DNA of 64,000 bases from an uncultured bacterium (GCA_963727525.1 CAVSGO010000006.1:146828-210827), one strand, 5' to 3'; numbered from the stretch's first letter, positions 5,755-64,000 are shown. Notes: generated by a model not told the origin, from the letters alone. Made by a program: numbers and translations.

Positions 5755-8611
5755 CGACCGGGCGATCGAGGCATTGATCGCCCGCATGGCGCGGGGCGAG
5801 CCCGTCGACTGGGACGACGCGCGGCAGAGCATCGCGAGCGACGAGGGTCGTGCCCATCTCGACGCCCTGCGCGGGATTTCCCGGATCGCGGCCTTCAACC
5901 ACGACCAGTGGGACCACTTCGCGCTCCTGCTCGAACGCGCCCGCGGGCTGGACCCGATCCAGCGCGAAGCCTGGTTGCGCGATCTGGATGGCGCGGACGC
6001 TGCCGACGTGCGTCACGCGCTGGGCGAACACGTGGAACCGACATCGGCCATGCCAGACCCGCCGCATGGGGCCGACGCGGACCTCCTGGCCGGCCAGGTC
6101 ATCGGTGCCTACACCCTCGACGCGTCGCTCGGCGAGGGGGGCATGGGCACGGTCTGGCTCGCGCACCGCAGCGACGGGCGCTTCGAGGGGCAGGTCGCCG
6201 TCAAGCTCCTGCACTTGCCGCGTGTGAGCCGCGACGGGCTGGCGCGGTTCCAGCGCGAGGGTCAGCTGCTGGCGCGCCTGCGCCACGCCAACATCGCCCA
6301 GCTCCTGGACGCCGGCGTGACGCCGCACGGGCAGCCGTACCTCGTGCTCGAGTACGTCGACGGCGAGCCCATCGACCGATACTGCGCCGCGCACGCGCTC
6401 GACGTGCGCGCGCGGATCCGCCTGTTCCTCGCCGTCCTCGCGGCGGTGGCGCACTCGCAGGCCAACCTCGTCGTCCATCGCGATCTCAAGCCGTCGAACA
6501 TCCTCGTCGACCGCGCGGGCACCGTGAAGCTGCTCGACTTCGGCGTCGGCAAGCTCCTAGCCGACGGCGACGCCGAGGCGACGGACACCGAGCTGACGCG
6601 CAGCGCCGGGCGGGCGCTCACGCCCGAGTTTGCGGCGCCGGAGCAGCTCCTCGGCGAGCCCGTGACGACGGCGACCGACGTCTTCGCCGCCGGCGTCGTG
6701 CTCTACCTGCTGCTCACCGGCGTTCACCCCCACGGCGACGCGCAGGGGTCGCCGCTGCCGCGCCTGCGGGGTATCCTCGAAGCGACGCCCCGGCCGGCGA
6801 GCGAGGCGGTGGACAGCGCCTCGCGCCGCCGCCATGAGCTGCAGGGCGACCTGGACAACATCCTGGCCATGGCGTTGCGCAAGGATCCTCGCGATCGCTA
6901 CGCCAACGCGGCCGCCTTCGCCGCCGATCTGCGGCGCTACCTCGAGCAGGAGCCAGTGGCGGCCCGTGCCGATACGATCCGCTACCGGGTCGGCAAATTC
7001 GTGCGCCGCAATCGCGCGGCAGTGGCCGGCGTCAGCGCGGCGATGATCGTGCTCGCCGGCCTGACGCTGTTCTCCCTCGTGGAGCTGCGGGAGGTGCGCC
7101 GCCAGCGCGATGCGGTGCAGGCGCAGATGCAGCGCGCGGAAGGCTTCAACACCGTCGTCACCAGCTTGCTCTCGCAGGTCGGGCCGGGCGGCCGGGCGCT
7201 GTCGCCCGGGGAACTGCTCGACCGCGCCGTCGGCGAGGTGCAGGCGCGGTACGCCGACGATCCGGCCTTCCTCGTCGACATGCTGATCCGGCTCTCCGGT
7301 CGGTACTTCGATCTCGGGGACCACCGGAAGGAGTACACGACGCTCGTGCAGGCGGAGTCGGTGGCGCGGCGGGCGAACGACCCGCGCCTGATCTTCCTGG
7401 TGCAGATCAACACGGTCGAGACGGAGCTCTACCTGGGGCGACGCGAGGCCGCCACGCGGCGCATCGAGGAGGCGCGCCACCTGTTGCCCGGATTGCATCC
7501 CCGGCCGCTGCTCGACGCCTACCTGCGGGCCGAGGCCGAGGTGGCGTGGCAGAACGGCGACGCGCCGGGGGCCATCGCCTACCTCGAGCGCGCCCGCCAC
7601 GAGCTGGAAGCGGACGACGACACGCACGGCAACGCGTACGCCGGACTGCTGAGCGTGCTGCGCCTGTATCACGCGCTCGTGGGCGACCTGCGCGAGGCGC
7701 ACCGGCTGGCGCAGGCGATGGTCGCGTTGCACGAGCGGCATCACCGCGAAACGTCGGCGGCTGGGACGATCTCCCGCGTCGTCCTCGCGATGAGCGACTA
7801 CGACATCGGCGAGGTCACGCTCGCCCGCCGCCTGTATCGGGACACGCTTCCCGAGGTGGACGACCCGCAGGAGGCGCGATCCGGGACGTGGGTCACCTCG
7901 CACTGGATCTACGGCGAGATGCTGAGCCGGCTGGGACGCCACGACGAGGCCCTGCCCCTGATCCACGCCGCGATCGCGGGGTTGCGGCGCGGCGGCAACC
8001 ACCAGAACGAGACGCGCGCGCGCCTGGCCCTCGCGCGCGCGCAGTTCCGCGCCGCGCGGTTGCCGGAGGCGCAGGCGACGCTCGACACGACCCTCGCCGG
8101 CATCGCCGACGACGGCCCCGCCCGCCGGATCTGGCTCATCGAGGCCGACCGGCTCCAGGCCGAGGTACACCTGGCCGAGCACCATCTCGACCGCGCCGCG
8201 GACGAGGCGCAGCGGGCGCTGGCCCTGATCGGAGGTGCCGACCAGCCGAACGGCCCGCGCCTCGGCCCGACGCTGCTGACGCTCGCCGGCATCCAGCTCG
8301 CCCGGAACGATATCGCGTCGGCACGTACGTCGGCCCTCGCCGCCGCCCGGGTCTTCACCCATGCGTGCGAGGATCCTGCGCGGAGTGCCGACCTCGGCGA
8401 AGCGATGCTCGTCGCCGCTCGCTGCGCGGCGGCGGCCGGCGACCGGGCGCAGGCGCGTCGGGACGTGGCGATCGCCGCCCCGGCCCTCGCCAGCGGTCTG
8501 GGCGAGGATCACCAGCTCACACGCGCGGCCCACGATCTCGCGGACGCCCTCGCGGCGGACGACGTGATGGGGGCGCCGGCGGCCGTCCAGCCGGCCGGAC
8601 ATGATCACTAG
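5747..8611 (+). CDS. Membrane Hanks-type Ser/Thr kinase with C-terminal TPR-like domain
   Basis: GEGGMGTV, VAVK, HRDLKPSN, DFG, APE; one TM (AVAGVSAAMIVLAGLTLFSLV); Ala/Leu-rich helical repeats after it. Confidence 0.95.
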   Translation: MPDDRAIEALIARMARGEPVDWDDARQSIASDEGRAHLDALRGISRIAAFNHDQWDHFALLLERARGLDPIQREAWLRDLDGADAADVRHALGEHVEPTSAMPDPPHGADADLLAGQVIGAYTLDASLGEGGMGTVWLAHRSDGRFEGQVAVKLLHLPRVSRDGLARFQREGQLLARLRHANIAQLLDAGVTPHGQPYLVLEYVDGEPIDRYCAAHALDVRARIRLFLAVLAAVAHSQANLVVHRDLKPSNILVDRAGTVKLLDFGVGKLLADGDAEATDTELTRSAGRALTPEFAAPEQLLGEPVTTATDVFAAGVVLYLLLTGVHPHGDAQGSPLPRLRGILEATPRPASEAVDSASRRRHELQGDLDNILAMALRKDPRDRYANAAAFAADLRRYLEQEPVAARADTIRYRVGKFVRRNRAAVAGVSAAMIVLAGLTLFSLVELREVRRQRDAVQAQMQRAEGFNTVVTSLLSQVGPGGRALSPGELLDRAVGEVQARYADDPAFLVDMLIRLSGRYFDLGDHRKEYTTLVQAESVARRANDPRLIFLVQINTVETELYLGRREAATRRIEEARHLLPGLHPRPLLDAYLRAEAEVAWQNGDAPGAIAYLERARHELEADDDTHGNAYAGLLSVLRLYHALVGDLREAHRLAQAMVALHERHHRETSAAGTISRVVLAMSDYDIGEVTLARRLYRDTLPEVDDPQEARSGTWVTSHWIYGEMLSRLGRHDEALPLIHAAIAGLRRGGNHQNETRARLALARAQFRAARLPEAQATLDTTLAGIADDGPARRIWLIEADRLQAEVHLAEHHLDRAADEAQRALALIGGADQPNGPRLGPTLLTLAGIQLARNDIASARTSALAAARVFTHACEDPARSADLGEAMLVAARCAAAAGDRAQARRDVAIAAPALASGLGEDHQLTRAAHDLADALAADDVMGAPAAVQPAGHDH

Positions 8612-12142: not shown

Positions 12143-14818
12143 ATGCGGCGCGCGGCCATTCTCCTCCTCGTGGTCTCGCTGGTGCCGGGTCTCCGTGCGC
12201 TTGCGCGTACCGATCCGCTTCCTCAGGACAAGGCCCACGTGCTCGACGGGAGCACGGTCCTCACCGCCGGCCGACTCTACGTGAACATCACGAACTGGGG
12301 CCTGATCGGCTCGCGCTACGGCGAGCTCAGCACCTTCGCCGACGCACCTTCCGGACAGTGGCCAGGGGGATCGAGCAACGAGTACCTCTTTGCCGGCGGT
12401 CTATGGGTCGGTGGCATGGAGCAAGGGGAGCCTCGCGTGTCCACGGGGCAGCCCGATGCGGAACTGCGGCCCGGCACCAACCCACAGGACACGATGTACG
12501 AGGCGCGCGAGGGGCTCGTGGTTCGCCCGATCGAACCGGGTGCCAGCGGTATTCCGTTCTTCATGCCCGGTGGCGACGACGATGGCGACGGCCGATACGA
12601 TGAGGAGATCCTCGACGGTTACGATCAGGACCACGATGGGCTCATCGACGAGGATTTCCGCCAGTACGGCACGCAGATGTTCAATTGCGTGATGCGCGAC
12701 AATACGCTGCTCGCGCGCCAGATCTACCCCGACCACCGGCCGCTGGACATCAAGGTCGTCCAGCGAGCGTTCTCGTGGCAGACGGTGGGGCAGCAGGACT
12801 TCGTGGTGCTCTCCTACGAGATCACCAACATCGGCGCCTCGGTGATCAACGACGTATACCTCGGCTTCTGGACGGACTGCGACATCGGCCGGCGCGACGA
12901 CCCCGACATCGCGCACAACGACATCGCCGGCGGTTTCGACGAGTACGTCCGCGTGCCGGAAGGGTATTTCCAGCCGGTACGCGGCGGGTACATGCGCGAT
13001 GCCGTGTCCGAGAATCCCCTGCCGGGCTGGTTCGGCGTGCAGGTCATCAATCACACCACCGACCAGACCGAGGTGCGTGCGCCGATGACCGTGCGGATGC
13101 ACGGCATGCATATCATCTCGGCTGGTGGCGCGGTCTGGGGCGGGGGCCCCCCGATCAACGATGCCGATCGCTACCAGCTTCTCGCCACGCCGGGACTCGA
13201 TCCCGACGTGAGCCCCGATCACGCCTACGACTACAGTTTCGTCGTGTCCACCGGCCCGTTCCCGACCTTTGGCCCGGGCGAGACACTCGTTTTCGAGATT
13301 GCCCTCTGCGTCGGCAATAGCCGCGAGGCGTTGCTTTCCTGCTGCGCGACGGCCCAGCAGGCTCAATTCGGACGCTGGGTCGACTTTGACCACAACTACG
13401 CGACCGGACTCGCCGGGCACGAGACGTTAGTCTGTGCCGAGGACTACTACCCCGACTGGAACTCGCCGCTCAATCCCATCTACGGGCGCAACTCCAACCT
13501 CTGGAACCGCGCCTGTCTCGGCGATGCGCTGGTCTTTCCCGACATCACGCCGGACGGGCTTGCCTGGTATCCCGACACTCGCAAGCACTGCATCTGGGTG
13601 AACATGGACAACTGCGAGGAGTGCGAGCGGGCGCAGGGAGTGAACTGCTACGATTTCTACGGCCCCAACGGTGGCGAGACCAAGGCGCTGGATGGTCCCG
13701 GCACGGGCAACGGCGGCCGCGAGACCCACGCGCCGTGGGAGGTGCTGGACCTGCCGCCGCCGGCCCCATCGATGCGTGTGGATGCTGCTGATGGCATCGT
13801 GCGCGTCTTCTGGGACGATCGCAGCGAGTGGACGCCGGACGGCCTCACCGGTTTCACAGATTTCGAGTCGTATCGGTTGTGGCGCTCGGACCAGTGGGCC
13901 CGTCCGCCGGGTTCGTCGCTGATCACGGGGCCGGCGCGCGACAGCTGGCGCCTGATGGCCGAGTACGACCTCGATAATCAGTACCGTGTGAATCTGCCCG
14001 GCAACATCGTCCGCTGGCTCGATTTCGGCAGCAACACGGGTTTAGCCGATATCACCTACGAGCCCGCCTGTCTGAGCGATCCTCTCTATTCCGGTCTCGA
14101 GGAGGCCATGCGCGCCATCATCGAGGCTGACACTGGCGGCCATTATACCTACCGACCCGCTCTGCGCGATGCCGTCGGCACGCCCGTTCCCGGGCTGGAG
14201 ACGCTCCTGCCCTGGGAGACCCACACCGACGTGCTGGACACGTTCTTCGCCGTGATCCCGCGCGAGGGGAACGACGGCGCGGTTCCGAAGCGCGGCATCC
14301 ACTACTACCAGTACACGGATACCGAGGTGCACAACGGCTACATCTATTTTTACGCCGTGACCACCACCGATCACCAGATGCTGAACGACGGCGTCACCAT
14401 CATCGGTCCGGGTATCCAGGGCGCGCCCGGCGCGAACTTCGCCCACGCCCAGCCGCGTTTCCAGGCAAACGACCCGCATGCCGGCGCGCAGGACGAGGTC
14501 TACGTCTATCCGAATCCGGCCACGCGCGATGCGCTGGCGCAGTTCCAGCAGATGGCGTCCACCGACGGCGACCCTACCGGCGTACGCGTGGCGTTCGCCC
14601 ATCTGCCGGCATGCCTGAGCACGATCCAGATCTACACGGTATCCGGCGACCAGGTGGCCACCTTCGATCACGACGGGACCGGTGGCAATGGCCAGGCCTA
14701 CTGGAACCTCATGTCCCGGAACAACCAGGAGATCACCAGCGGCATCTACCTGTTCGTGGTCACTCCGCACGACACGCGCTTCACGCCGTCCATCGGCAAG
14801 TTCGTGGTGGTGCGCTGA
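12143..14818 (+). CDS. Large secreted protein with Asp-rich Ca-binding-like repeats, Fn3-like region and C-terminal sorting-like domain
   Basis: Signal peptide; NITNWGLIGS, EYLFAGGLWVG; DDDGDGRYDEE/DQDHDGLIDED; Cys-rich insert; C-terminus VYVYPNP...IYTVSGDQV...WNLMSRNNQEITSGIYLF...GKFVVVR. Confidence 0.75.
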   Translation: MRRAAILLLVVSLVPGLRALARTDPLPQDKAHVLDGSTVLTAGRLYVNITNWGLIGSRYGELSTFADAPSGQWPGGSSNEYLFAGGLWVGGMEQGEPRVSTGQPDAELRPGTNPQDTMYEAREGLVVRPIEPGASGIPFFMPGGDDDGDGRYDEEILDGYDQDHDGLIDEDFRQYGTQMFNCVMRDNTLLARQIYPDHRPLDIKVVQRAFSWQTVGQQDFVVLSYEITNIGASVINDVYLGFWTDCDIGRRDDPDIAHNDIAGGFDEYVRVPEGYFQPVRGGYMRDAVSENPLPGWFGVQVINHTTDQTEVRAPMTVRMHGMHIISAGGAVWGGGPPINDADRYQLLATPGLDPDVSPDHAYDYSFVVSTGPFPTFGPGETLVFEIALCVGNSREALLSCCATAQQAQFGRWVDFDHNYATGLAGHETLVCAEDYYPDWNSPLNPIYGRNSNLWNRACLGDALVFPDITPDGLAWYPDTRKHCIWVNMDNCEECERAQGVNCYDFYGPNGGETKALDGPGTGNGGRETHAPWEVLDLPPPAPSMRVDAADGIVRVFWDDRSEWTPDGLTGFTDFESYRLWRSDQWARPPGSSLITGPARDSWRLMAEYDLDNQYRVNLPGNIVRWLDFGSNTGLADITYEPACLSDPLYSGLEEAMRAIIEADTGGHYTYRPALRDAVGTPVPGLETLLPWETHTDVLDTFFAVIPREGNDGAVPKRGIHYYQYTDTEVHNGYIYFYAVTTTDHQMLNDGVTIIGPGIQGAPGANFAHAQPRFQANDPHAGAQDEVYVYPNPATRDALAQFQQMASTDGDPTGVRVAFAHLPACLSTIQIYTVSGDQVATFDHDGTGGNGQAYWNLMSRNNQEITSGIYLFVVTPHDTRFTPSIGKFVVVR

Positions 14819-15003
14819 GCCGCCCGGGAGGGCTGGCGGACGATTTCGTCCTGGACGGCGGCTCGATCGAGGCACTGATTTCCCAGGAGATTGCTACGGT
14901 TGACCTGTAGATGGGAACTCATCGACAGGTGAACAGCTTTCCGGCTGGACCCGATGGGCCGACTCTTGTTTATATTGTTGCGGCTCCAACCCCGCGAGGA
15001 AAT

Positions 15004-22751: not shown

Positions 22752-23462
22752 ATGCGAACGAGAACGCGCCTTATCATTGTCGCACTGGCGGCCGTCACTT
22801 TGATGGCGGGCGCCCCGGTTTTACACGCCAGGCCGCTACCCGGCGAGCGTGACATCGGGCGGGATGTTCCACCCGATCTCCCACCCCAGGCGCCCCTCGG
22901 CTATCTCATGGTCGAGGACGACCTCTGGTCGCAATACAGCGGCGAACCGGCGAGTTCGTTTCATGACGCCGTCCAGAGCTTTCTGGACGACGATCTCACC
23001 GCCGCGTCCGAGTCGATCGACCGCGGATCGGCCTTCGTGAGGGTGGAGGGATCGCGCGCCGATCCCGACCATCGGGCGGCGATCCAGGGGGCGTCCGACG
23101 CGCTGACGGCGCTGGCGAACCAGGTGCGGGCGGGCCAGGTCACCGACGTGAAGGACATGAACCCCGTCTTCGCGCGCGCCGACCGCGTTCTTGCTGAACA
23201 CCACCTGTTGCTGGCCGACGAGGCCGAGGGCGAAAGCGATGCGCGTCGCGTCGGCCTGCATCTCGAGGCGGCGGCGCAGTGCCTGCGCGAGCTGAACACA
23301 TGGCTCGGCGACGAGTCCGATCGGGTCGCCGGCAAGATTCTCGACCGGTCGCAAAAGCTCGGCAAGCAGCTCGAACAGGGTAAGGCCACGCTCGACGCCG
23401 ACGCGCGCCAAGCATTGACGGAGTGCCGGCGCCTGCTCGTGGCCGCGCGGCAGCCGCGCTAG
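22752..23462 (+). CDS. Secreted helical hypothetical protein (possibly YfdX-like)
   Basis: ATG22752 after GGGGA; signal peptide; internally repeated helical halves. The family call is tentative. Confidence 0.5.
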   Translation: MRTRTRLIIVALAAVTLMAGAPVLHARPLPGERDIGRDVPPDLPPQAPLGYLMVEDDLWSQYSGEPASSFHDAVQSFLDDDLTAASESIDRGSAFVRVEGSRADPDHRAAIQGASDALTALANQVRAGQVTDVKDMNPVFARADRVLAEHHLLLADEAEGESDARRVGLHLEAAAQCLRELNTWLGDESDRVAGKILDRSQKLGKQLEQGKATLDADARQALTECRRLLVAARQPR

Positions 23463-54770: not shown

Positions 54771-54825
54771 GTCGGGCTTGCCGGCCGGCAGCAACGGTGC
54801 GAAGCTGGCGGCGAGGAGGTTCGTC

Positions 54826-55551
54826 ATGCCCGACCGGCACCCGTTCGCCGCCCTGGTCCTCGGAATCTGCCTGATCGCCGCCGCGGCGATCCTGGCGACG
54901 ACGTGGCGCGGCAACGTCAAGATCGCCCAGACGCTCGACGTCGTCGGTTCGGCCAAGATGGACCTGATGTCCGATCTGGGCCGCCTCACCTGCAGCCTGC
55001 AGGCCAGTGGCAGCACCGCCGAGGCCGCGTATACCGCGTTGCAGGGGCAGATCCCCATCCTGACCGAATACCTCGCGGGCATGGGTCTCACCGGCGACGC
55101 CATCGAGCCGTCGCCGATCAATACCTGGACCGTCGACGAATTCGACAGCAACGGTCGGCCCACCGGTCGCGTGCTGTCGTACGAGGCGCAGCAGCAGTTC
55201 GTGGTGGAATCGAAGGATGTCGACCTGATCAAGCGCGTCTCCCTCGACCTGGCCAGCCTCGTGACCAAGGGCGTGGATATCCACACCCAGTCCCCCGAGT
55301 ACCTCTACCTGGAACTCTCCGACGTGAAGGTGGAGGTGCAAGCCCTCGCCGCCAAGGACGCCATGGAACGCGCCCGCCGCATCGCCGAGGCCAGCGGCGC
55401 GAAGATCGGGCCGATCCGCGACGCCACCGTGGGGGTGTTGCAGATCACGCCTCAGCATTCGACGATGGTGTCGGATTACGGGATCAACGACAACTCGTCG
55501 ATCGAGAAGCAGATCACCGCCGTGGTGCATGCGAAGTTCGCGATCCAGTAG
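54826..55551 (+). CDS. SIMPL (DUF541) domain protein
   Basis: LDVVGSAKMDLMSD, KDAMERARRIA, GVLQITP, SIEKQITAVV; GAGGAGG RBS. Confidence 0.9.
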   Translation: MPDRHPFAALVLGICLIAAAAILATTWRGNVKIAQTLDVVGSAKMDLMSDLGRLTCSLQASGSTAEAAYTALQGQIPILTEYLAGMGLTGDAIEPSPINTWTVDEFDSNGRPTGRVLSYEAQQQFVVESKDVDLIKRVSLDLASLVTKGVDIHTQSPEYLYLELSDVKVEVQALAAKDAMERARRIAEASGAKIGPIRDATVGVLQITPQHSTMVSDYGINDNSSIEKQITAVVHAKFAIQ

Positions 55552-55635
55552 GGGCGGATTCGACGTAGTTGCGCGCAAAGATTCGTCGTCCGCGCGCGAT
55601 GTCCCGCCGCACGGCCTCGAGAAAACCACCCTGGA

Positions 55636-56070
55636 CTAGGGACGCGTGAAGTCACACAGCGGTGGTGACGTCGTTTCCTCGCGCAGCAAATCCTCGATGG
55701 ACGATCCCGCGAACGCGATTTCCATGGCTTCGGCCGCCATGTCGAGGCGTCGGTGCAGCGGGCAAAGCGTCGTGCCGTGGCTCGTCAGACCCAGGGGGCA
55801 GCTGTGGATGCGGCGGATGGGATCCACCGCATTGACCACATCGAGCACCGAGATCTCCGCCGGCGGCCGGGCGATGCGGAAACCGCCACCGCGCCCGGGG
55901 GCGGACGTCACCAGGCCGGCTCGGGCCAACTTCTGCAACACCTTCGCGAGATAGCCGGCCGGCACCTGGGATACCCGGGCGATCTCAGGCGTGCCGTGGG
56001 GGGCGTCCGATGCCGAAGCCAGCCAGACCACGGCTCTCAGGGCATATTCGGCAGTTTGGGAGATCATCAT
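55636..56070 (-). CDS. Rrf2 family transcriptional regulator
   Basis: MISQTAEYALRAV, YLAKVLQKL..AGLV.S..GRGGGF; C-x11-C-x2-H. Confidence 0.92.
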   Translation of the reverse strand: MMISQTAEYALRAVVWLASASDAPHGTPEIARVSQVPAGYLAKVLQKLARAGLVTSAPGRGGGFRIARPPAEISVLDVVNAVDPIRRIHSCPLGLTSHGTTLCPLHRRLDMAAEAMEIAFAGSSIEDLLREETTSPPLCDFTRP

Positions 56071-56119
56071 CCGGAGGTCCCTTCTCTCGCGATCCTGCCT
56101 CACAAGATCCACAAAAAGG

Positions 56120-56173
56120 ACCTTGACGTCCAGGTTTAACTTGTGCAATTTATGTAAACCAAGACGTCTTGGT
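56120..56173. promoter_or_regulatory. Two ACC-N2-GACGTC-N2-GGT palindromes (candidate Rrf2 operators)
   Basis: ACCTTGACGTCCAGGT (56120-56135, contains a TTGACG -35-like hexamer) and perfect ACCAAGACGTCTTGGT (56158-56173). Confidence 0.7.
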
Positions 56174-56207
56174 ATCGTTAAAGCCTGGAAACGACAGGAG
56201 TGTTGTG

Positions 56208-56945
56208 ATGGCCATCGATCTCGAAACCAGCGTCGGCGACCTTGCCGGCAGCCTCCCAGCCCTGATTCCCGTGCTGGAATCACTCGGTATCGACTACTGC
56301 TGTGGCGGCCAGCGATCGCTGGTCGAGGCGTGCCGGTCCGCCAACCGCGATCCCCAGACAGTGCTGGCGGCGCTGGTCCGGGCCGAGCAGCCATCATCGG
56401 CGTCGTCCGTGGCTGCCACCGACTGGCGACAGGCGAGCCTCAACGCGCTCATCGATCACATCGTCGCTCGCCACCATGAATATCTGCGCCAATCGCTGCC
56501 TCGTATCGGCGATCTCATGCAGACCGTCTTGAAAGCCCATGGCGCCAACCACCCGGATCTGGCCGGGGTGTCCGAGCAATTCCAGGCGTTGCGCGCCGAA
56601 CTTGAGAACCATCTGCTCAAGGAGGAGGGCATCCTCTTCCCCATGATCCAGTCGATGGAGGTGACACGGAGTCTGGACGACGTCCATTGCGGCTCCGTTG
56701 CCAACCCCATCACGGTCATGGAGCACGAACACGACAACGCCGGAAACGCCCTGCGCAATCTGCGAGCCTGGACCAACGAGTACCAGCCGCCCGCCGACGC
56801 TTGCCCCACCTATCGTGCGTTGCTCACGGACCTGGCCAACCTCGAGCAAGACCTCCACGAGCATATCCACATGGAGAACAATCTTCTGCACCCCCGCGCC
56901 GTGGCCCTGGAAGCCCGGTTGCGCAACACTGCCGCAGGCGATTGA
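56208..56945 (+). CDS. ric: Iron-sulfur cluster repair di-iron protein
   Basis: GIDYCCGG, HHEYLR, HLLKEE..LFP, EHEH, HIHMENN. Confidence 0.95.
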   Translation: MAIDLETSVGDLAGSLPALIPVLESLGIDYCCGGQRSLVEACRSANRDPQTVLAALVRAEQPSSASSVAATDWRQASLNALIDHIVARHHEYLRQSLPRIGDLMQTVLKAHGANHPDLAGVSEQFQALRAELENHLLKEEGILFPMIQSMEVTRSLDDVHCGSVANPITVMEHEHDNAGNALRNLRAWTNEYQPPADACPTYRALLTDLANLEQDLHEHIHMENNLLHPRAVALEARLRNTAAGD

Positions 56946-56956
56946 AAGGTCGAACC

Positions 56957-59245
56957 ATGAACAATCGCAAACTCTGGGGTACGTTCGTTGCCGTGATCGT
57001 GATCTCGTTTTCCGTGCTCGGATACTTCGGTCACGAGATCTATCGCCAGGCGCCTCCCATTCCCGACCGCGTCGTCGCCGCGTCGGGCGAGGTGCTCTTC
57101 ACCGGTCAGCAGATCCACGACGGTCAGAATGTCTGGCAGTCCACCGGCGGCCATGAGCTGGGTTCGGTCTGGGGCCATGGGTCCTACGTCGCGCCGGACT
57201 GGTCGGCCGACTGGCTTCACCGGGAAGCCGAGCACCTGCTCGGACTGTGGAGCGATCGAGACTATCAGCGCCGTCCCGCAGCGATCAGCGCCGAGCAACT
57301 GGCTGGCCTGAAATCGCGCCTGCAGCAGGAGATGCGCACCAATACCTACGACCCGGCCACCAGGGTCTTGACCCTCGGCAATGACCGCGCCGCCTCGGTG
57401 CTGGCGATCGCCACCTACTACCGGCAGCTCTTCGGAGACGATCCGCAGCTGGCCCGGACCCGCGAGGCGTACGCCATGCAAACGCCCACGGTCAGTGGCC
57501 GCGAACGTCTCGACGACCTGACCGCGTTCTTCTTCTGGACCGCCTGGGCCTGTGTCACGGAACGGCCTGGGCAGGAGATCACCTACACCAACAACTGGCC
57601 GGCCGACGAGCTGGTGGGCAACCATCCGACAGGCAACCTCATCCTGTGGACCGGTTTTTCGGTGATCCTGTTGCTGGCGGGAGTGGCCTTGCTGGGATGG
57701 TACTACGCCACCAACCGTGATCAAGAACCGGACCCGTCGACGTTGCCGGCCAACGATCCGCTCACGGCGCTCGAGCCGACGCCGTCCATGCAGGCCACGC
57801 TCAAGTATTTCTGGGTGGTGTGCGCCCTGCTGGTCGTGCAGGTCGTGCTCGGTGCGGTAACCGCGCATTTCGGCGTGGAGGGTTCGGGCTTCTATGGCCT
57901 CGACCTCGGCCGCATCCTGCCATACAGCGTATCGCGCACCTGGCACGTGCAGCTTGGCATCTTCTGGATCGCCACCTCGTGGCTGGCGACCGGGTTGTTC
58001 ATCGGTCCGGCCGTGGCCGGCCAGGAGCCACGATTCCAGAGGCTCGGCGTCAACGTGCTGTTCGGCGCGCTGATCGTCGTGGTGGGCGGCTCGCTCGTCG
58101 GCGAGTGGCTCGGCATCATGCAGAAGCTCGATCTGGTGCCCAACTTCTGGTTCGGTCATCAGGGTTACGAGTATGTCGACCTGGGCCGGCTGTGGCAGAT
58201 CTTGCTGCTGGTGGGACTGCTGCTGTGGTTGGTGTTGATGGTGCGCGCTCTGCTGCCGGCGTTGCGACGGCGAGACGAGAGCCGCTCGCTACTCACCCTG
58301 CTCGTGATCTCCTGCGTGGCCATTGCCGGCTTCTACGGCGCTGGCCTGATGTGGGGTCGCCAGACCAACCTGGCCATGGCCGAATACTGGCGCTGGTGGG
58401 TCGTGCACCTGTGGGTGGAAGGTTTCTTCGAGGTGTTCGCCACGGTGGTGATCGCCTTCCTGTTCGTGCGGCTGGGCCTCCTGCGAGTGAAACTGGCCAC
58501 GGCCGCCGCGCTGTTCTCCACCAACGTGTTCCTTGCCGGCGGCATCATCGGCACCTTCCATCACCTGTATTTCACCGGTACACCCACGGCCATCCTGGCC
58601 CTGGGGTCGACGTTCTCGGCGCTGGAAGTCGTGCCGCTGGTGCTGCTGGGCTTCGAGGTCTATCACAACCTGCGGCTGAGCAAGGCCACACCGTGGCTCA
58701 CGGCTTACAAGTGGCCCATCTACTGCTTCGTGGCCGTGGCCTTCTGGAACCTGGTCGGTGCCGGCATCTTCGGTTTCCTCATCAATCCGCCCATCGCGCT
58801 GTACTACATGCAGGGCTTGAACACCACGCCAGTGCACGGTCACACGGCCCTGTTCGGTGTGTATGGCATGCTCGGCATCGGGCTCATGCTGTTCGTGCTC
58901 AAGGGCCTGGCCGCGCGCCGGATCTGGAAGGACGGCGTGATACGATTCGCGTTCTGGTCGATCAACGTCGGCCTCCTGCTCATGGTGCTGATCAGTGTCC
59001 TGCCGATCGGTCTGGCCCAGACGGTGGCCAGCGTGAACAAGGGTCTGTGGTATGCACGGTCGTCGGCGTTCATGCAGCAAGACTATCTGCAAACCCTGCG
59101 CTGGCTGCGGGTGATCGGCGACACCATCTTCGCCGTGGGGGCGCTGGCGCTAGGCTACTTCGTGATGGGGCTGAAAACCGGCTGGTCGGTACGGCCCGAG
59201 CACGATCTGCCAGAGCGGGTGGCCGCGAAGGTGTTGGCCCGATGA
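56957..59245 (+). CDS. norB: Quinol-dependent nitric oxide reductase (qNor/NorZ type)
   Basis: GSVWGHGSYVAPDWSADWLH, RTWHVQL, WWVVHLWVEGFFEVF, GTFHHLYF, HGHTALFGVYG. Confidence 0.96.
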   Translation: MNNRKLWGTFVAVIVISFSVLGYFGHEIYRQAPPIPDRVVAASGEVLFTGQQIHDGQNVWQSTGGHELGSVWGHGSYVAPDWSADWLHREAEHLLGLWSDRDYQRRPAAISAEQLAGLKSRLQQEMRTNTYDPATRVLTLGNDRAASVLAIATYYRQLFGDDPQLARTREAYAMQTPTVSGRERLDDLTAFFFWTAWACVTERPGQEITYTNNWPADELVGNHPTGNLILWTGFSVILLLAGVALLGWYYATNRDQEPDPSTLPANDPLTALEPTPSMQATLKYFWVVCALLVVQVVLGAVTAHFGVEGSGFYGLDLGRILPYSVSRTWHVQLGIFWIATSWLATGLFIGPAVAGQEPRFQRLGVNVLFGALIVVVGGSLVGEWLGIMQKLDLVPNFWFGHQGYEYVDLGRLWQILLLVGLLLWLVLMVRALLPALRRRDESRSLLTLLVISCVAIAGFYGAGLMWGRQTNLAMAEYWRWWVVHLWVEGFFEVFATVVIAFLFVRLGLLRVKLATAAALFSTNVFLAGGIIGTFHHLYFTGTPTAILALGSTFSALEVVPLVLLGFEVYHNLRLSKATPWLTAYKWPIYCFVAVAFWNLVGAGIFGFLINPPIALYYMQGLNTTPVHGHTALFGVYGMLGIGLMLFVLKGLAARRIWKDGVIRFAFWSINVGLLLMVLISVLPIGLAQTVASVNKGLWYARSSAFMQQDYLQTLRWLRVIGDTIFAVGALALGYFVMGLKTGWSVRPEHDLPERVAAKVLAR

Positions 59246-59253
59246 GTTGATTC

Positions 59254-59285
59254 CAGGGGGCCCGCCGTTGGCGCCCCCTGATTTT
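59254..59285 (+). terminator. Probable terminator after qNor
   Basis: CAGGGGGC...GCCCCCTG hairpin followed by ATTTT. Confidence 0.6.
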
Positions 59286-59335
59286 GGGCTCCAGATCCAT
59301 CGAACCTTCTGGCATACTCGTGCCAGGAGGTTCCG

Positions 59336-59923
59336 ATGGGGAAGCCGCAGTTCACCGATCCGCGGTTCGTGGATCGGCTGCGATCCGGTGACGCCGTAGC
59401 CATCGAGGCGGTGGTCCATGCCTATCTCCCGCAGATCCTGCGGGCGGCTCGCGGGGCCGGCCTGGATCTCGCGCGGGCTGAGGATGTCACGCAATCCGTC
59501 TTTCTGACCTTCATCCAGACTGTCGCGCGATTCGAGGGGCGGGCCCATGTACGGACGTGGTTGTTCGGTATCCTCTACCGGAAACTCTCGGAGACCTGGC
59601 GTGCCGTCAAGCGGGAGAACGAAGCGGACGATATCGACGGGATCATGGAGGAGCGGTTCGCGCCGAACGGAACCTGGGCGCGTCCGCCCCGCGAGGCGGA
59701 TCAGGAGACACTGGACGCGGAGATCCGGGCTCACCTCGCGGTCTGCCTCGATGGCGTTCCCCAGCGCCAGCGGGTGGCGTTCCTGATGCGGGAGGTCGAG
59801 TGTATGTCGACCGAGGAGATATGTAATGTCATGGAGGTTACCGACACCAACCTCGGGGTGCTCCTGTTCCGGGTCCGCAACCGCCTCCGCGAGTGTCTTG
59901 AGAAGCGGAACGTGAAGGGCTGA
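59336..59923 (+). CDS. ECF sigma factor (resembles Neisseria sigmaE/ECF13 type)
   Basis: AEDVTQ, FEGRAHVRTWLFGIL, RFAPNGTW..P, EEICNVMEVT.TN..VLLFR.R.RLRECL. Confidence 0.92.
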   Translation: MGKPQFTDPRFVDRLRSGDAVAIEAVVHAYLPQILRAARGAGLDLARAEDVTQSVFLTFIQTVARFEGRAHVRTWLFGILYRKLSETWRAVKRENEADDIDGIMEERFAPNGTWARPPREADQETLDAEIRAHLAVCLDGVPQRQRVAFLMREVECMSTEEICNVMEVTDTNLGVLLFRVRNRLRECLEKRNVKG

Positions 59924-59927
59924 TACG

Positions 59928-60203
59928 ATGCTGAAATGCCACGAAGTTTCGCATCTGGCGGCGAGCGGTGGGATCGCCCGGGCGGGGTTGCTCAAGCGAC
60001 TCGAGTTTCGCCTGCACCTCATGATGTGCCGTCACTGCCGCAACTATGTCCGCCAGGTCGCGCGGATCGGCGCCGCGGCCGCGAAGCTCTTCGGCGCCGG
60101 GACCGAGGATGCCGACGCCGTGGCGCGCGTCGAGGCCAGGGTTCTCGCCTCGGTCCGCAAGCCCCCTCCCGATCACGACGGTGGCGCCAGCCACTCCCAC
60201 TAG
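59928..60203 (+). CDS. zf-HC2 (ZAS) anti-sigma factor, soluble
   Basis: MLKCHEVSHL...RLHLMMCRHCRNY (C...HxxxCxxC); no TM; 4 bp after the sigma gene. Confidence 0.9.
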   Translation: MLKCHEVSHLAASGGIARAGLLKRLEFRLHLMMCRHCRNYVRQVARIGAAAAKLFGAGTEDADAVARVEARVLASVRKPPPDHDGGASHSH

Positions 60204-60847
60204 CGCGCCGCTCGCGATTCGTTTGCGCTCCAGCGTCGGTAGACCAGTCCCAGGGCAGTGCCGTAGACGATGTGGGCCAGGATGACGGTGACCGGCATCG
60301 TGGGCATCTGCAGACCAAAGGCGCCGACGCCAAGCGACGTGGCGACAGGGCTGGCCAGGAACCCGATCCCGATCATGACACCGTAGGCGACGGACCAGCG
60401 CAGACGGCGGCGTCCCAGCAGCACCGCAAAGATCAAGCCGAACATCCCGCCATTGGCGAAGTGATATGCCCAGCCCAGGACATCGGAGAGGTGTGACGGT
60501 CCGACCATGAAGCGGTTGGTGAGCAGGACGCCCATCAGACGCGGCATGTCGCCCGGCATGCCGCCGAGCCGGAAGCTCACGATCCGGACGATCTCCAGTC
60601 CGATCGTGGCCACCACACCGGCGGCTGCACCCACCAGCGTTCGCCTGACCAGAATCCGGTGTCCACGGTGGGCGGCAAGGACGACAACCCCGGCGAGCAC
60701 GGCCAGCGCAGGCAACAAGAGGTTCAGGGCGAGCACGGACATGCTCGCGTAGCCCGCCTGTGCAGCGGGGAAGATGTTGGGCGCGATCGCAGCCAGGGCC
60801 AGGATCGTCGCCGCAAAGGCGTTCTGTTCGTTGATGATGCGTCGCAT
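60200..60847 (-). CDS. Uncharacterised multi-pass membrane protein
   Basis: About 5-6 hydrophobic segments; GDMPRLMG, GWAYHFANG, ILAHIVYG (two intramembrane His); GGAG RBS. Confidence 0.75.
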   Translation of the reverse strand: MRRIINEQNAFAATILALAAIAPNIFPAAQAGYASMSVLALNLLLPALAVLAGVVVLAAHRGHRILVRRTLVGAAAGVVATIGLEIVRIVSFRLGGMPGDMPRLMGVLLTNRFMVGPSHLSDVLGWAYHFANGGMFGLIFAVLLGRRRLRWSVAYGVMIGIGFLASPVATSLGVGAFGLQMPTMPVTVILAHIVYGTALGLVYRRWSANESRAAR

Positions 60848-60906
60848 GAGTCATTGTCTCCTCGCTCGAGATCCGGATGCTGAAATCGAATCGCGGTCAA
60901 CGGTAG

Positions 60907-60933
60907 GTGTCGCCTCGCCGCGCTTCCTTACAC
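60907..60933 (-). promoter_or_regulatory. Candidate ECF-dependent promoter for the membrane protein gene
   Basis: GTGTAAGG-aagcgcggcgagg(13)-CGACAC on the minus strand. Confidence 0.7.
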
Positions 60934-60981
60934 GGAGGTTGGCGCGCCCAACCCCGTCGGCGGTCGGTACCGAAAGATTGT

Positions 60982-61008
60982 GTGTAAGGGATGCCTCGCG
61001 TCCGTCAC
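60982..61008 (+). promoter_or_regulatory. Candidate ECF-dependent promoter for the DUF302 operon
   Basis: GTGTAAGG-gatgcctcgcgtc(13)-CGTCAC on the plus strand. Confidence 0.7.
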
Positions 61009-61077
61009 TCACAGGCCGAGAGCGAAATCGTCCGAACCCGGGCGACACAGGAAATTTGCAAACGATCGGAGCGAATC

Positions 61078-61560
61078 ATGAAGACGTCGAATACCCACCT
61101 GGTTCACGCTGGCCTGCTGGCCCTGGTCTTGACCCTGCCTTCACTGACTGCTGGCGCGGCACGGGCTACGGGCGCGGACGATCTGAGCCAGACCGTGGTG
61201 GCGGGTTCGGTAGAGCAGGTGCTGAGCGGCCTGAAGAAGATGGTCGCCGACCACGGGATGATGGTCATGGGCGAGTTGCACCAGGGCAAGGTGCTGGAGA
61301 TGACCGGACTGAAGGTGACGTCCGAGTCGATCTTCGTCGGCAACCCTAACGTGGGGAAGAAGCTCTTCGCCATCGAACCGGGCGCCGGGGTCGCCTTGCC
61401 CGTGCGCGTGAACATCTTCGAGAATGCCGCCGGGCAGACCGTCGTTGCCTACATCCCGCCATCCCGGCAACTCGCCGGCTATCACAACCCCATGCTGGAC
61501 AAGGCTGCCGCCATGCTCGACGAGAAGCTGGCCGGTATGGTCGGCATGATCGGCAAGTAG
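61078..61560 (+). CDS. Secreted DUF302 domain protein, Met-rich
   Basis: Signal peptide; IFVGNPNVGKKL, GVALPVRVNIFE, TVVAY. Confidence 0.85.
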   Translation: MKTSNTHLVHAGLLALVLTLPSLTAGAARATGADDLSQTVVAGSVEQVLSGLKKMVADHGMMVMGELHQGKVLEMTGLKVTSESIFVGNPNVGKKLFAIEPGAGVALPVRVNIFENAAGQTVVAYIPPSRQLAGYHNPMLDKAAAMLDEKLAGMVGMIGK

Positions 61561-61608
61561 CAGTCTCCCGAAGTGCCCCACCAGGCCACGCAAGCAAAGG
61601 AGATAGTA

Positions 61609-63876
61609 ATGAAACGGACTTTGACCCTCCTCGTCGGCATCGGTCTGGTACTACTGGCCGCGTCCGCCTCGGCGCAGCTACGGATCACCGACACGTCGCA
61701 CTACGTGACCGAGACGCAGATGCTCCTCGCCAACGAGATCAACGAGAGCGGCGAACCCTACGCCGAGGCCCTCGGCTACGATCTCGATGTGCTCGACCCC
61801 ATGCAGCCGGGCTTTCCGGATGCGACGGCGTATACGCTCGGCATCGAGAACTACGAGTACTCGCGGTATCAGCTCGGCGTCGTGATCGCACGGTCGGGAA
61901 TCGGCTTGCACATGATGTGGTCTCCCGTGATCCGGGCGCAGGCCGCCATGGAGACCGACCCCGGCTTTGACGGCTCGTTCACCGGTCCGCCGAACGGCTA
62001 CCGCGAGGATGACGAACTGATGAAGGTGGTCATGCATTTCGGTCAGCTCGCGGACCACGTGCCGCCGACCAATGCCTGGCCACAGTTCGGCGAGTTCGTC
62101 GAGGGTGATCCGCACTACGCCCAGCCCGTGGACGCCGACGCGTTCACCCACGACTTCGCCACCTTGCGCTGGGACCGTTCCCGGATGATCAAGGAGCTCT
62201 CGCCGGGAGCCATGGGGCAGACGCTGATGAAACAGTATCTCTGGTCCCAGGACATGCTCAGCGCATTCCACGACACCAACGGCGAGGCCGTCGAGGCCGA
62301 CGGCAGTGTCAGCCCCGACGGCCCGGATGGGGTCTTCGACCCGGACAACGGGATCTTCTACGGGGGTGACGATCTCGACGGTTTCGTGGGACAGGTCCTC
62401 ACGGCCGAGGCCGTCAACAAGGTCAAGAACCTCGTGGACAACCTAGCCTTCGACGGCCGCAATCTCGGGTCGATCGACCTCATGACCTACGATCCGGTGG
62501 CAGGCCTGCGCTACTTTCCCCATCGCATCGCGGTCGATGAGGAGCCGGTACCGGGGCTGCCGCCGCAGGCGGCGGACTACGACGTCGTCGATCCGCGCAG
62601 CGATCTCTTCGACCAGGCATCGTTGCTCTGGGGCGCCGTCCATTTTGCCGACATGATGAATCCGAACAACTCGAGCGATGCTGCGCACCTCGCCTACCAT
62701 GCCGCGTTCGATGGCGATCCGTTTCCCGCAGCAATGAGCGAGACAGGTGTGCCGGGTCCCTTCGACCTCATGAAGGGCACTGCGAAAGCCGTGTTCCTGA
62801 ACCTCATGGCGATGCACTTCGACGCCACCGCCGGATCGTTCGTCGACTTCAGCCGCCCCGTCGGGTTCGGCCGGTCTGATGACGGTGGCGACGATCACGA
62901 CGACGACGGGATCGTTCGCCACGGCGTGCAGCTGGGCAGCCGCCTGTCCACGGTCGACGCAGCCTATCTTCTGGTCGCCCTCGATTCGTTCCTCGGTCAG
63001 TTCTCAAACACGCCGCTCGCAGCCGCGGCTCGGGACGCCATCGCAGCCCAGGCCGATTTCCTGATCGCGTCGGTGGACCACCGCAACCTGTATCGCGAGT
63101 GGGTGCGAGTCGGTGGCCACGACCGCGGCCAGCGCGGCGCCCCGAGCCTCCTGGCGCAGGCCGCGGCCGTCCGCGCACTCTACTCGGCCTATGACGCGCT
63201 CGGCGACGCCCGGTATCGCGACGCGGCGGACTCGGCCTACACGACCATGGTGGAGACCTACTTCCGCGGCGACGCGGGCCTCTTCGCCACCGGTTTCGGC
63301 GGTCGCAAGGCGACCTACGATCCGCAGATCATGGCCATCCTCTCCGGTGCCTTGCGCGAAGCGCGCCTGGTGGGCGACCACGAGGATGCCACCGACATCT
63401 ACGTGTCACTCTGGAACAACGTGGCGAACACGATGCAACTGGCAGAGGGCGCCAACACCGGCGAGACCGGCGGCGACTCCGATGGCGACGGCATTCCGTT
63501 CATTCCTGAGCAGGCTGAAGATCTGGCCCCCGTGTTCGCTCCGCGCGCGGAGGTCTGGCTCGGAAGCCTCGGCGGTGGTCACGACGGCGTATCCCCGGCC
63601 GGTGCGTCGGGAACCGGTACCGTCCCGATGCTCGCCACCCCCAATCCATTCAATCCCGTCACCGTGATTGCCTTCGATCTCCCGCAATCCGCGCACGTGA
63701 CACTCGCCATATACGATGTCCTCGGTCGCGCCGTGCGCCATCTCATCGAGGGTGACCTGCCGTCCGGGGTCCACGAGGTCACGTTCCTCGGAGATGACCT
63801 CTCATCGGGCGTCTACTATTACGTGCTCGACACGGGAGGGAATCGTCAGGTCGGCAAGATGACACTCGTGAAGTGA
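61609..63876 (+). CDS. Uncharacterised secreted protein, possible alpha/alpha toroid, with C-terminal sorting-like domain
   Basis: AAGGAG then ATG61609; signal peptide; helical repeats (DLFDQASLLWG, LLAQAAAVRAL, LGDARYRDAA); C-terminus PNPFNPVTVIAFDL...IYDVLGRAV...SSGVYYY...GKMTLVK. Confidence 0.85.
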   Translation: MKRTLTLLVGIGLVLLAASASAQLRITDTSHYVTETQMLLANEINESGEPYAEALGYDLDVLDPMQPGFPDATAYTLGIENYEYSRYQLGVVIARSGIGLHMMWSPVIRAQAAMETDPGFDGSFTGPPNGYREDDELMKVVMHFGQLADHVPPTNAWPQFGEFVEGDPHYAQPVDADAFTHDFATLRWDRSRMIKELSPGAMGQTLMKQYLWSQDMLSAFHDTNGEAVEADGSVSPDGPDGVFDPDNGIFYGGDDLDGFVGQVLTAEAVNKVKNLVDNLAFDGRNLGSIDLMTYDPVAGLRYFPHRIAVDEEPVPGLPPQAADYDVVDPRSDLFDQASLLWGAVHFADMMNPNNSSDAAHLAYHAAFDGDPFPAAMSETGVPGPFDLMKGTAKAVFLNLMAMHFDATAGSFVDFSRPVGFGRSDDGGDDHDDDGIVRHGVQLGSRLSTVDAAYLLVALDSFLGQFSNTPLAAAARDAIAAQADFLIASVDHRNLYREWVRVGGHDRGQRGAPSLLAQAAAVRALYSAYDALGDARYRDAADSAYTTMVETYFRGDAGLFATGFGGRKATYDPQIMAILSGALREARLVGDHEDATDIYVSLWNNVANTMQLAEGANTGETGGDSDGDGIPFIPEQAEDLAPVFAPRAEVWLGSLGGGHDGVSPAGASGTGTVPMLATPNPFNPVTVIAFDLPQSAHVTLAIYDVLGRAVRHLIEGDLPSGVHEVTFLGDDLSSGVYYYVLDTGGNRQVGKMTLVK

Positions 63877-63894
63877 TATGTCACTTCGCGCCCG

Positions 63895-63920
63895 GGCCGG
63901 GAACGACGCAGTTCCCGGCC
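63895..63920 (+). terminator. Hairpin downstream of the last gene
   Basis: GGCCGGGAAC-gacgca-GTTCCCGGCC; a second hairpin GAAGTGA-tatg-TCACTTC overlaps the stop (63870-63887); no U-tract. Confidence 0.5.
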
Positions 63921-63956
63921 CCGTTCGCCGCTGTCAAGAAGCCAATCAGGGAGTGA

Positions 63957-64000
63957 ATGGATACAGTTGATCGCCGACGGGCCTGGGTCTTGCTTGAACC
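63957..64000 (+). CDS. Possible start of the next gene (truncated by the window)
   Basis: GGGAG then ATG63957, MDTVDRRRAWVLLE; too short to assign. Confidence 0.25.
   Translation, partial: MDTVDRRRAWVLLE

Follow-up and report, generated by a model that had tools for sequence, protein, structure and literature searches.

The 64,000-nt stretch of DNA analysed here (GCA_963727525.1, CAVSGO010000006.1:146828-210827; hereafter the window) comes from an uncultured bacterium and carries, between positions 59336 and 63876, a locus at which an extracytoplasmic function (ECF) sigma factor and a small anti-sigma factor lie beside genes for envelope proteins. An identical locus is present on a Logan contig. 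The sigma gene (59336-59923, plus strand) encodes 195 aa in which Pfam recognises Sigma70_r2 (39 bits) and Sigma70_r4_2 (40 bits) only, the architecture of an ECF (group 4) sigma factor, and the protein scores 74.5 bits against TIGR02937 (cut-off 42.9). Four nucleotides further on, the plus-strand gene at 59928-60203 encodes a 91-aa soluble protein of the zinc-cysteine anti-sigma (ZAS) type, with Cys4 and the H-x3-C-x2-C motif H30LMMC34RHC37. The next gene (60200-60847, minus strand) is convergent with it, the two overlapping tail to tail by 4 nt (60200-60203) with no space for a terminator, and encodes a 215-aa inner-membrane protein with six predicted transmembrane helices belonging to DUF6789 (PF20587; 40.1 bits, cut-off 27.1, residues 68-211). 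Divergent from this gene, 61078-61560 (plus strand) encodes a periplasmic DUF302 protein of 160 aa with a signal peptide (PF03625; 37.0 bits, cut-off 23). It is followed after 48 nt by a gene (61609-63876, plus strand), probably co-transcribed with it, for a 755-aa protein, predicted to form an (α/α)6-barrel, with the TIGR04183 sorting domain of the type IX secretion system (T9SS). A preliminary description of the locus had listed the same products (sigma factor, soluble HxxxCxxC protein, His-containing membrane protein, DUF302 and a 755-aa secreted protein), and these gene calls hold when set against Pfam, NCBIfam and the sequence itself.

Two promoter-like elements face outward from the region between the DUF6789 and DUF302 genes. 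On the plus strand, 60982-61008 reads GTGTAAGG GATGCCTCGCGTC CGTCAC, with a 13-nt spacer, written gatgcctcgcgtc in GTGTAAGG-spacer-CGTCAC form; on the minus strand, 60933-60907 reads GTGTAAGG AAGCGCGGCGAGG CGACAC, again with a 13-nt spacer, written aagcgcggcgagg in GTGTAAGG-spacer-CGACAC form. The two -35 boxes are 48 bp apart, and the elements are candidate promoters of DUF6789 (GTGTAAGG-N13-CGACAC, minus) and of DUF302 together with the 755-aa gene (GTGTAAGG-N13-CGTCAC, plus). Identical GTGTAAGG-N13-CG(T/A)CAC elements with equal spacing on both strands were what first drew attention to the locus, and both copies are exact. No other exact match occurs in the 64 kb. When up to two mismatches were allowed, four matches were found against 0.70 expected, a number reached by none of 100 shuffles; the two-mismatch site at 23378 was rejected, as it is outside the register seen in related genomes and absent from the relaxed scan. 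That scan, made with a relaxed clade-level pattern over both strands (128 kb), gave three matches, all at the sigma/DUF302 locus, and no copy elsewhere in the window. Scanning of 59150-64000 for sigma-70-type promoters found none.

Conservation of these elements was followed in related genomes. DUF302 and DUF6789 are tightly linked in at least 193 of approximately 185,000 species genomes (one genome per species), and 80 of the 193 loci found were fetched for comparison (numbered here with the prefix L). In an intergenic alignment of five sequences from the window's own clade, mean column identity is 56% and the invariant blocks are the -35 and -10 only, GTGTAA(G/T) and CAC(T/C)CAC on either side. 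The -10 block in all five is NCAC followed by (T/C)CAC (GCACTCAC type), so that in clade register the window's candidate promoters read TGTAAGG-N15-ACAC CTAC for DUF6789 and TGTAAGG-N15-TCAC TCAC for DUF302. CGWCAC, taken as the -10 in the preliminary description, therefore coincides only in part with the conserved signal, its CGWC part being peculiar to the window among the five. The motif of the DUF6789 promoter is retained in L002, L003, L006, L082, L087 and L089. A short hairpin in the 5' leader of DUF302 (CGTCCG-AACC-CGGGCG, 61033-61050, plus strand) is also conserved; RNAalifold, run on the window, L082, L002, L003 and L006, gave 7 bp closed by a 4-nt loop with compensatory changes at two pairs, which is weak evidence for a structured element. 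Searching 59200-64000 against Rfam identified no family, the single match (mir-679, E 0.085) being noise.

Across phyla, a generalised pattern, [TC]GT[AC]A[GCT][GA]-N15/16-(CGWC, NCAC or [CGA]GAC), matched the region before DUF302 at 32 of 77 loci, which represent more than 10 phyla, compared to approximately 2 expected (0.025 per region). Here the motif is bipartite, directional and single-copy, lying 65 to 195 nt upstream of DUF302; planctomycetes, Balneolales and Zetaproteobacteria have CG(A/T)C as the -10, as opposed to NCAC in the window clade. This pattern of conservation supports the view that the two motifs behave as ECF-type promoters. One relative, L002, with 66% identity at the protein level, has three tandem copies of the -35 box in its DUF6789 promoter (GGTGTAAGGGCAC x3; 7860-7895), of which the last alone is correctly spaced to a -10.

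The regulatory genes recur with the same context. An ECF sigma factor adjoins DUF302-DUF6789 in approximately 20 of the 80 loci, in several phyla, usually with a small open reading frame (ORF) behind it. The sigma orthologues are 69 to 85% identical within the clade and 30 to 36% identical in other phyla. Cys4, His30, Cys34 and Cys37 are invariant in all 18 aligned anti-sigma factors (the window protein and 17 orthologues), which are 80 to 100 aa long and have no transmembrane segment. Co-occurrence of the gene set in other genomes had been put forward as a check: it is borne out for sigma, anti-sigma, DUF302 and DUF6789, whereas the 755-aa protein accompanies them in this lineage only.

The third match of the relaxed scan, TGTAATG-N15-ACAC (59822-59847, plus strand), is inside the sigma gene, in the coding sequence of region 4.2 and approximately 80 nt before the start of the anti-sigma gene. 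Among 21 sigma orthologues, 17 have an equivalent site, and its distance to the anti-sigma start (approximately 75 to 130 nt) is comparable to the length of the target-gene leaders. Resampling of synonymous codons, with the protein fixed and local usage retained, gave an expectation of 3.3 loci out of 21 with a stricter form of the pattern, against 13 observed. The Cys codon within the site is TGT in 17 out of 17, including loci at 65 to 75% GC where TGT makes up only 14 to 29% of Cys codons, and in the window it sits in the rare-codon run ATA-TGT-AAT. Furthermore, the -35/-10 variants of the internal site co-vary with the DUF302 promoter of each clade. Four clade-specific variants are shared in this way: TGTAAT/G…NCAC in the window clade, TGTAAC…NGAC in L019, L031 and L034, TGTAAGG…CGWC in Planctomycetes and Balneolales, and TGTCA(G/T)G…CGWC in a Bacteroidales metagenome-assembled genome (MAG; L064). 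Within 400 nt upstream of the sigma gene no motif was found at any of the 21 loci, and comparison of the upstream regions of the clade sigma genes revealed nothing shared.

Because the motif lies within the sigma gene and is missing in front of it, with an unvarying TGT codon and variants that track the targets, sigma would induce its anti-sigma factor and not itself. The internal site is thus probably a sigma-dependent promoter for the anti-sigma gene alone, providing negative feedback without self-amplification. It is possible, if rather doubtful, that the site is instead a by-product of conserved region-4.2 residues with no promoter activity, the anti-sigma gene being only co-transcribed with sigma. 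The site does encode a conserved peptide (I-C-N/K-x-x-E-V/I-S/T-x-T-N), which makes its conservation partly a matter of protein; C-K-(D/E) yields TGTAAGGA whenever Cys is TGT, and the L034 anti-sigma factor has one comparable chance match at its N-terminus. Synonymous resampling gives P values of 0.11 to 0.52 per locus, so that a match in any single sequence is unremarkable, the orthologues with the site represent only about four to five independent clades, and the 4-nt gap between the two genes suggests co-transcription in any case. A by-product of this kind would, however, not be expected to show TGT in every orthologue that has the Cys, even at high GC, nor variants changing in step with the target promoters, nor a leader-like distance to the anti-sigma start together with the complete absence of autoregulatory motifs upstream of sigma. 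A literature search on internal anti-sigma promoters returned nothing relevant, from which no absence of precedent is claimed.

The locus can be interpreted with good confidence as a switch of the kind known from Neisseria sigmaE-MseR, in which a soluble ZAS anti-sigma factor controls an ECF sigma. The sigma gene would not be autoregulated and would be transcribed from another kind of promoter. In the absence of stress, the 91-aa anti-sigma factor, with its Cys4, His30, Cys34 and Cys37, would sequester sigma, until a thiol-reactive agent (an oxidant, an electrophile or a thiophilic metal) modified the Cys/Zn site and released it. Free sigma would then read TGTAA(G/T)(G/A)-N15-NCAC at the three sites in the window, inducing DUF6789, DUF302 with the 755-aa gene behind it, and, from the 3' coding region of its own gene, a transcript carrying the anti-sigma gene only. 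The core output would be the DUF302-DUF6789 pair, that is, a periplasmic protein with a signal peptide and a six-helix membrane protein, both with conserved motifs rich in Met that are predicted to lie on the periplasmic side. We infer the pairing of the motifs with the adjacent sigma because sigma and anti-sigma adjoin the DUF302-DUF6789 genes in about a quarter of the sample and because clade variants are shared by the target promoter and the sigma-internal site. The system had been described as one of envelope stress; that term fits its outputs, which are envelope proteins, and not its input, since a soluble anti-sigma factor implies a cytoplasmic sensor.

The resemblance to Neisseria sigmaE (RpoE, NMB2144) and MseR (NMB2145) lies in a small soluble ZAS anti-sigma factor encoded directly after sigma and, on comparison with the published positions, in the same placing of Cys and His: MseR has Cys4/His30/Cys34/Cys37, corresponding to C11/H37/C41/C44 of RsrA (Hopman et al., PMC2893595). 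The Neisseria sigmaE promoter has the -35 GTMAGBWTT and the -10 CGTCTAAH separated by 12 to 13 nt (PMC2893595), in agreement with the promoter type that the preliminary description had given. The window -35, GTAAGG(TT), equals the published -35 GTAAGGTT, the -35/-10 spacing is similar and a very small regulon is a further likeness. The systems differ in that the Neisseria operon is autoregulated from an upstream promoter, whereas here, as far as the DNA sequence indicates, there is no motif before sigma and a copy lies inside it. The targets would differ as well: msrAB in Neisseria, and here DUF302, DUF6789 and a protein with a T9SS sorting domain.

Streptomyces coelicolor sigmaR-RsrA (and mycobacterial SigH-RshA) likewise combine sigma with a cytoplasmic ZAS anti-sigma factor that has an additional N-terminal Cys at an equivalent position, and the regulon of the planctomycete relatives, like that of sigmaR, includes thioredoxin-system genes. 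However, the promoter consensus differs, sigmaR is positively autoregulated, and the core outputs here are envelope proteins; redox reactivity of the anti-sigma factor is putative. The -10 element, the lack of an autoregulatory promoter, the candidate intragenic promoter for the anti-sigma gene and the regulon would set the present system apart from both Neisseria sigmaE/MseR and sigmaR/RsrA.

Among curated families, the best NCBIfam models for the window sigma are PRK12544 and TIGR02943 (approximately 101 to 104 bits, below their cut-offs), and that for the anti-sigma factor is NF052368. Orthologous sigma and anti-sigma factors from L038 and L035 pass the cut-offs of both TIGR02943 and NF052368. 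For TIGR02943, sigma factors from orthologous contexts score 177.3 (L038) and 163.1 (L035), which pass, and 151.5 (L008) and 115 (L019), which fail; NF052368 is passed by the L038, L035 and L019 anti-sigma factors at 59 to 63 bits. The Pfam zf-HC2 model does not match the window anti-sigma factor at E ≤ 0.01 although it does match that of L038, and a sequence search of the PDB with the window protein gave nothing meaningful. With scores below both cut-offs and a putatively altered -10 preference, the window sigma/anti-sigma pair is, judged by these profiles, a divergent Krumholzibacteria-like branch of the TIGR02943/NF052368 family and not a pair of curated members. In the ECF classification ECF13 has been merged into ECF293 (PMC7826278).

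Several observations weigh against reading the locus as such a switch. The window sigma scores 101.3 bits against TIGR02943 (Sig70_famx1), well under the cut-off of 162.2, and the anti-sigma factor 47.4 bits against NF052368 ('antisigmaE'), for a cut-off of 50. The -10 of the window clade, NCAC(T/C)CAC, differs from Neisseria CGTCTAA, and other phyla have CG(A/T)C. The motif is missing from 45 of the 77 DUF302 upstream regions, and a sigma gene adjoins only a minority of the DUF302-DUF6789 loci. Neither DUF302 nor DUF6789 has a conserved Cys, which argues against Mer-like thiol chemistry, and a mechanism of that kind was rejected for these proteins. In Neisseria itself no oxidant tested induced sigmaE (PMC2893595).

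The DUF302-DUF6789 pair is more widespread than the switch. The 80 loci span more than 10 phyla, and in 76 of them DUF302 adjoins DUF6789, the remaining four being three loci cut by contig ends and one merged ORF. Carriers belong to Krumholzibacteriota, Gemmatimonadota, Acidobacteriota, Planctomycetota, Bacteroidota, Balneolales, Zetaproteobacteria, Cloacimonadota and Desulfobacterota, among other groups. With few exceptions the order is DUF302 then DUF6789 on the same strand, as it is in L028 and L062 from Krumholzibacteriia; a divergent arrangement is confined to the window, L002, L003, L006, L082 and L087-L089. As divergence is confined to the window and its nearest relatives and the operon order is found in other Krumholzibacteriia, the back-to-back promoters are, on gene order, the product of a lineage-specific inversion of DUF302 in an ancestral DUF302-DUF6789 operon, after which each gene would have kept or acquired its own copy of the promoter.

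DUF6789 homologues are 55 to 71% identical across phyla, with 61 invariant columns that include GGMPGD-PRL-G, RFM-GPS, YHF-NG and H192; His129 and His192 are both invariant. The AlphaFold2 (AF2) model of the window protein (pLDDT 92) consists of six long helices, the first two of which (residues 1-67) are outside the Pfam match, and a fold search of the PDB with this model revealed no relative (best E 0.6, TM 0.24). From the positive-inside rule, both termini are probably cytoplasmic. The invariant loops GGMPGD(L/M)PRLMG…RFMxGPS and MPxMP would then face the periplasm, and E85, R88, D122, Y128, H129, N132 and H192 would lie within presumed spanning helices, in the outer half of the membrane. 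A signal peptide is present in every DUF302 orthologue examined, together with the subfamily motifs nGMMVM, MTG and FvGNP. The best PDB sequence match for DUF302 is one chain deposited as 'CrcB' (E 0.02). Conserved Met clusters in the periplasm, together with His, typify Cu(I)/Ag(I) sites, but could also be oxidant-sensitive.

That DUF302 and/or DUF6789 might also belong to the sensing pathway, passing an envelope signal to the switch, is unlikely. They are the sole universally linked partner of the sigma family, and regulators and targets are inseparable from genomic context alone (PMC7826278). Nevertheless, the anti-sigma factor is soluble and without a membrane anchor, three quarters of the DUF302-DUF6789 pairs occur without the sigma, and both genes are behind a sigma-type promoter.

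It is more improbable still that the motifs are real promoters read by another ECF sigma factor encoded elsewhere, the adjacent sigma and anti-sigma genes being unrelated neighbours. At approximately 60 of the 80 DUF302-DUF6789 loci no sigma is encoded within 8 kb, and at least nine loci show the motif although no sigma adjoins (L014, L022, L032, L040 and L074 are examples); in such loci, however, the sigma gene may be situated in another part of the genome. Beside the pair, the adjacent sigma family is found again in at least four phyla, and the sigma gene of each clade holds the variant of its own target promoter (TGTAAT/NCAC, TGTAAC/NGAC, TGTAAGG/CGWC or TGTCAKG/CGWC), which is hard to explain unless this family reads the motif. 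The idea that a dimeric transcription factor binds the inverted GTGTAAGG...CAC elements as operator half-sites, and that they are not promoters, can draw on the inverted pair in the window and on the small palindromic hairpin-like element in the DUF302 leader, but it is very hard to sustain, given that outside the clade a single directional copy with fixed -35/-10 geometry (N15-16) is always oriented to DUF302, that the spacer between the two window copies is conserved in neither length nor sequence, and that the -35 box of L002 is triplicated on one side only.

Two further, linked proposals can be combined, though only tentatively, as the combination falls somewhat short of being probable. 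The first is a sigma family that carries its own promoter in the DNA encoding its -35-reading helix-turn-helix, forming a conserved circuit with negative feedback only that has co-evolved, in at least four clades, with promoter specificity. The second is that DUF302-DUF6789 is an unrecognised periplasm/inner-membrane module of many phyla that deals with oxidant damage or with one of the thiophilic metals Cu(I), Ag(I) and Hg(II), in which DUF6789 has a membrane fold without a solved relative. By analogy only, the pair resembles MerP/MerT and CopC/CopD, where a protein with a signal peptide and a small polytopic membrane protein are encoded in one operon; a cytoplasmic flavoprotein disulfide reductase follows the pair in five loci, or mer genes are nearby in some. 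There is, however, no sequence or fold relationship to these proteins, and Met, His, Asp and Glu are conserved in place of Cys pairs. Published work places DUF302 beside sox genes and metal-resistance clusters but assigns it no function (PMC5037610, PMC7760498). In the literature searched, nothing relevant was found on DUF6789, and nothing that links it, or DUF302 with an ECF sigma, to such a system.

The switch would provide a regulatory handle on DUF6789 and the widespread DUF302, and the condition that fires it should point to the function of the pair. It would also extend the MseR-type ZAS switch to uncultured lineages of the FCB group, planctomycetes and acidobacteria. Should the intragenic promoter be real, it would represent an economical arrangement whereby an ECF sigma induces its own inhibitor but not itself, and the co-varying -35/-10 variants would form a natural dataset for sigma-promoter specificity and for orthogonal switches.

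The 755-aa protein is less tightly tied to the system. It scores 28 bits against TIGR04183 (cut-off 23), which places it among proteins with a T9SS C-terminal sorting domain, and 22.1 against Pfam Por_Secre_tail, below the cut-off of 27. Its AF2 model (pLDDT 75) ends in a C-terminal beta-sandwich, and Foldseek matched the model to glucose/cellobiose 2-epimerases (E 5e-6, TMt 0.54), a fold-level match at 10 to 13% identity; an AGE/cellobiose-2-epimerase profile matches at E 3e-4 over approximately 65 residues. The family is large in the FCB group, with full-length identities of 48 to 66%. Homologues with their own motif copy were found in L028, where the gene is divergent from DUF302, and in L083, at an unlinked site, and in the 80 loci the protein was not seen next to DUF6789 in other phyla. 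On this distribution it is a regulon member only in the Krumholzibacteria-like lineage. Downstream of the 755-aa gene there is a GC-rich hairpin with no U-tract (GGGCCGGGAAC-gacgca-GTTCCCGGCCC, 63894-63921, plus strand), read from the sequence, and beyond the right end of the window follows a sulfotransferase gene (L001 595-1341) on the same strand. In L084-L086 (contigs carrying P0191, source name Ignavibacteria), a 733-aa homologue is divergent from merR-merT-merA. Downstream of it are genes for a peroxiredoxin, a histidine kinase, a Rieske/FMN reductase, AhpD-like and glutaredoxin-like proteins and Crp, with an integrase adjoining.

Upstream of the sigma gene in the window is a cluster concerned with nitric oxide (54778-59245). 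It encodes a SIMPL/DUF541 protein (54778-55551), an Rrf2-family (NsrR-like) regulator (55636-56100, minus strand), a ScdA/RIC di-iron hemerythrin protein (56169-56945) and a quinol-type NorB (qNor) with a fused cytochrome-c-like domain (56960-59245). Placement of the system directly after qNor had prompted the suggestion of a response to nitrosative damage. The qNor, RIC/ScdA and NsrR-like Rrf2 genes are absent from every related locus, and a hairpin followed by TGATTTT (approximately 59256-59285) separates qNor from the sigma gene. The linkage was rejected and, since these genes adjoin the system only in the window, the nitrosative idea has no comparative support.

The regulon had also been called self-contained, which is too strong, as relatives have further motif-driven genes. 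One encodes a very Met-rich membrane protein of 147 to 156 aa with weak similarity to DUF6789/DUF2938, divergent from sigma in the nearest relatives (L003 11268-11738, L087 10437-10907, L088 8830-9300 and L089 4659-5102); a motif copy of its own accompanies it in L003, L087 and L089, and the window has no counterpart. In the planctomycete L038, motifs precede a methyltransferase gene, a thioredoxin gene (followed by a patatin gene), a gene for a conserved 110-aa protein of unknown function, DUF302-DUF6789, and genes for a ferredoxin-thioredoxin reductase (FTR)-beta-like protein and thioredoxin, with MerR and MerC adjacent. L038 and L029 (Planctomycetia/Pirellulales MAGs) have five to eight motif copies within 10 to 16 kb, a much larger local regulon than that of the window. 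The thioredoxins and FTR-like proteins in the richer regulons of some lineages hint at thiol stress. With the redox and mer genes that neighbour the pair, they give its surroundings a thiol and metal theme, which speaks for the proposed switch.

Other genes recur around the pair. Clustering of neighbouring ORFs merged families through shadow ORFs and served only to choose candidates for Pfam. Genes for peroxiredoxin, AhpD-like (carboxymuconolactone decarboxylase, CMD) and DsrE-like proteins are recurrent neighbours. Directly 3' of DUF6789 and on the same strand, L041, L048, L050, L058 and L073 carry a glutathione reductase (GR)-like flavoprotein disulfide reductase with the active site CA(L/N/Q)RGC and the C-terminal motif YAYPTxxSDxPYM. 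In L019 a bona fide MerA (12947-14926; 560 bits, cut-off 454) is encoded approximately 5 kb downstream. DUF3179 genes, of which there is none at the window locus, are directly 3' of DUF6789 in clade relatives (L003 9059-9625, L087 7720-8631 and L089 1420-2331) and nearby in planctomycetes (L009 3460-4593). A 284-aa group-2, RpoS-like sigma factor is encoded downstream of DUF302 on the same strand in L082 (2382-3236) and L087 (4711-5565), in the latter after an AhpD-like CMD gene, at the place occupied in the window by the 755-aa gene. This arrangement suggests a cascade from the ECF sigma to an RpoS-like sigma in L082 and L087.

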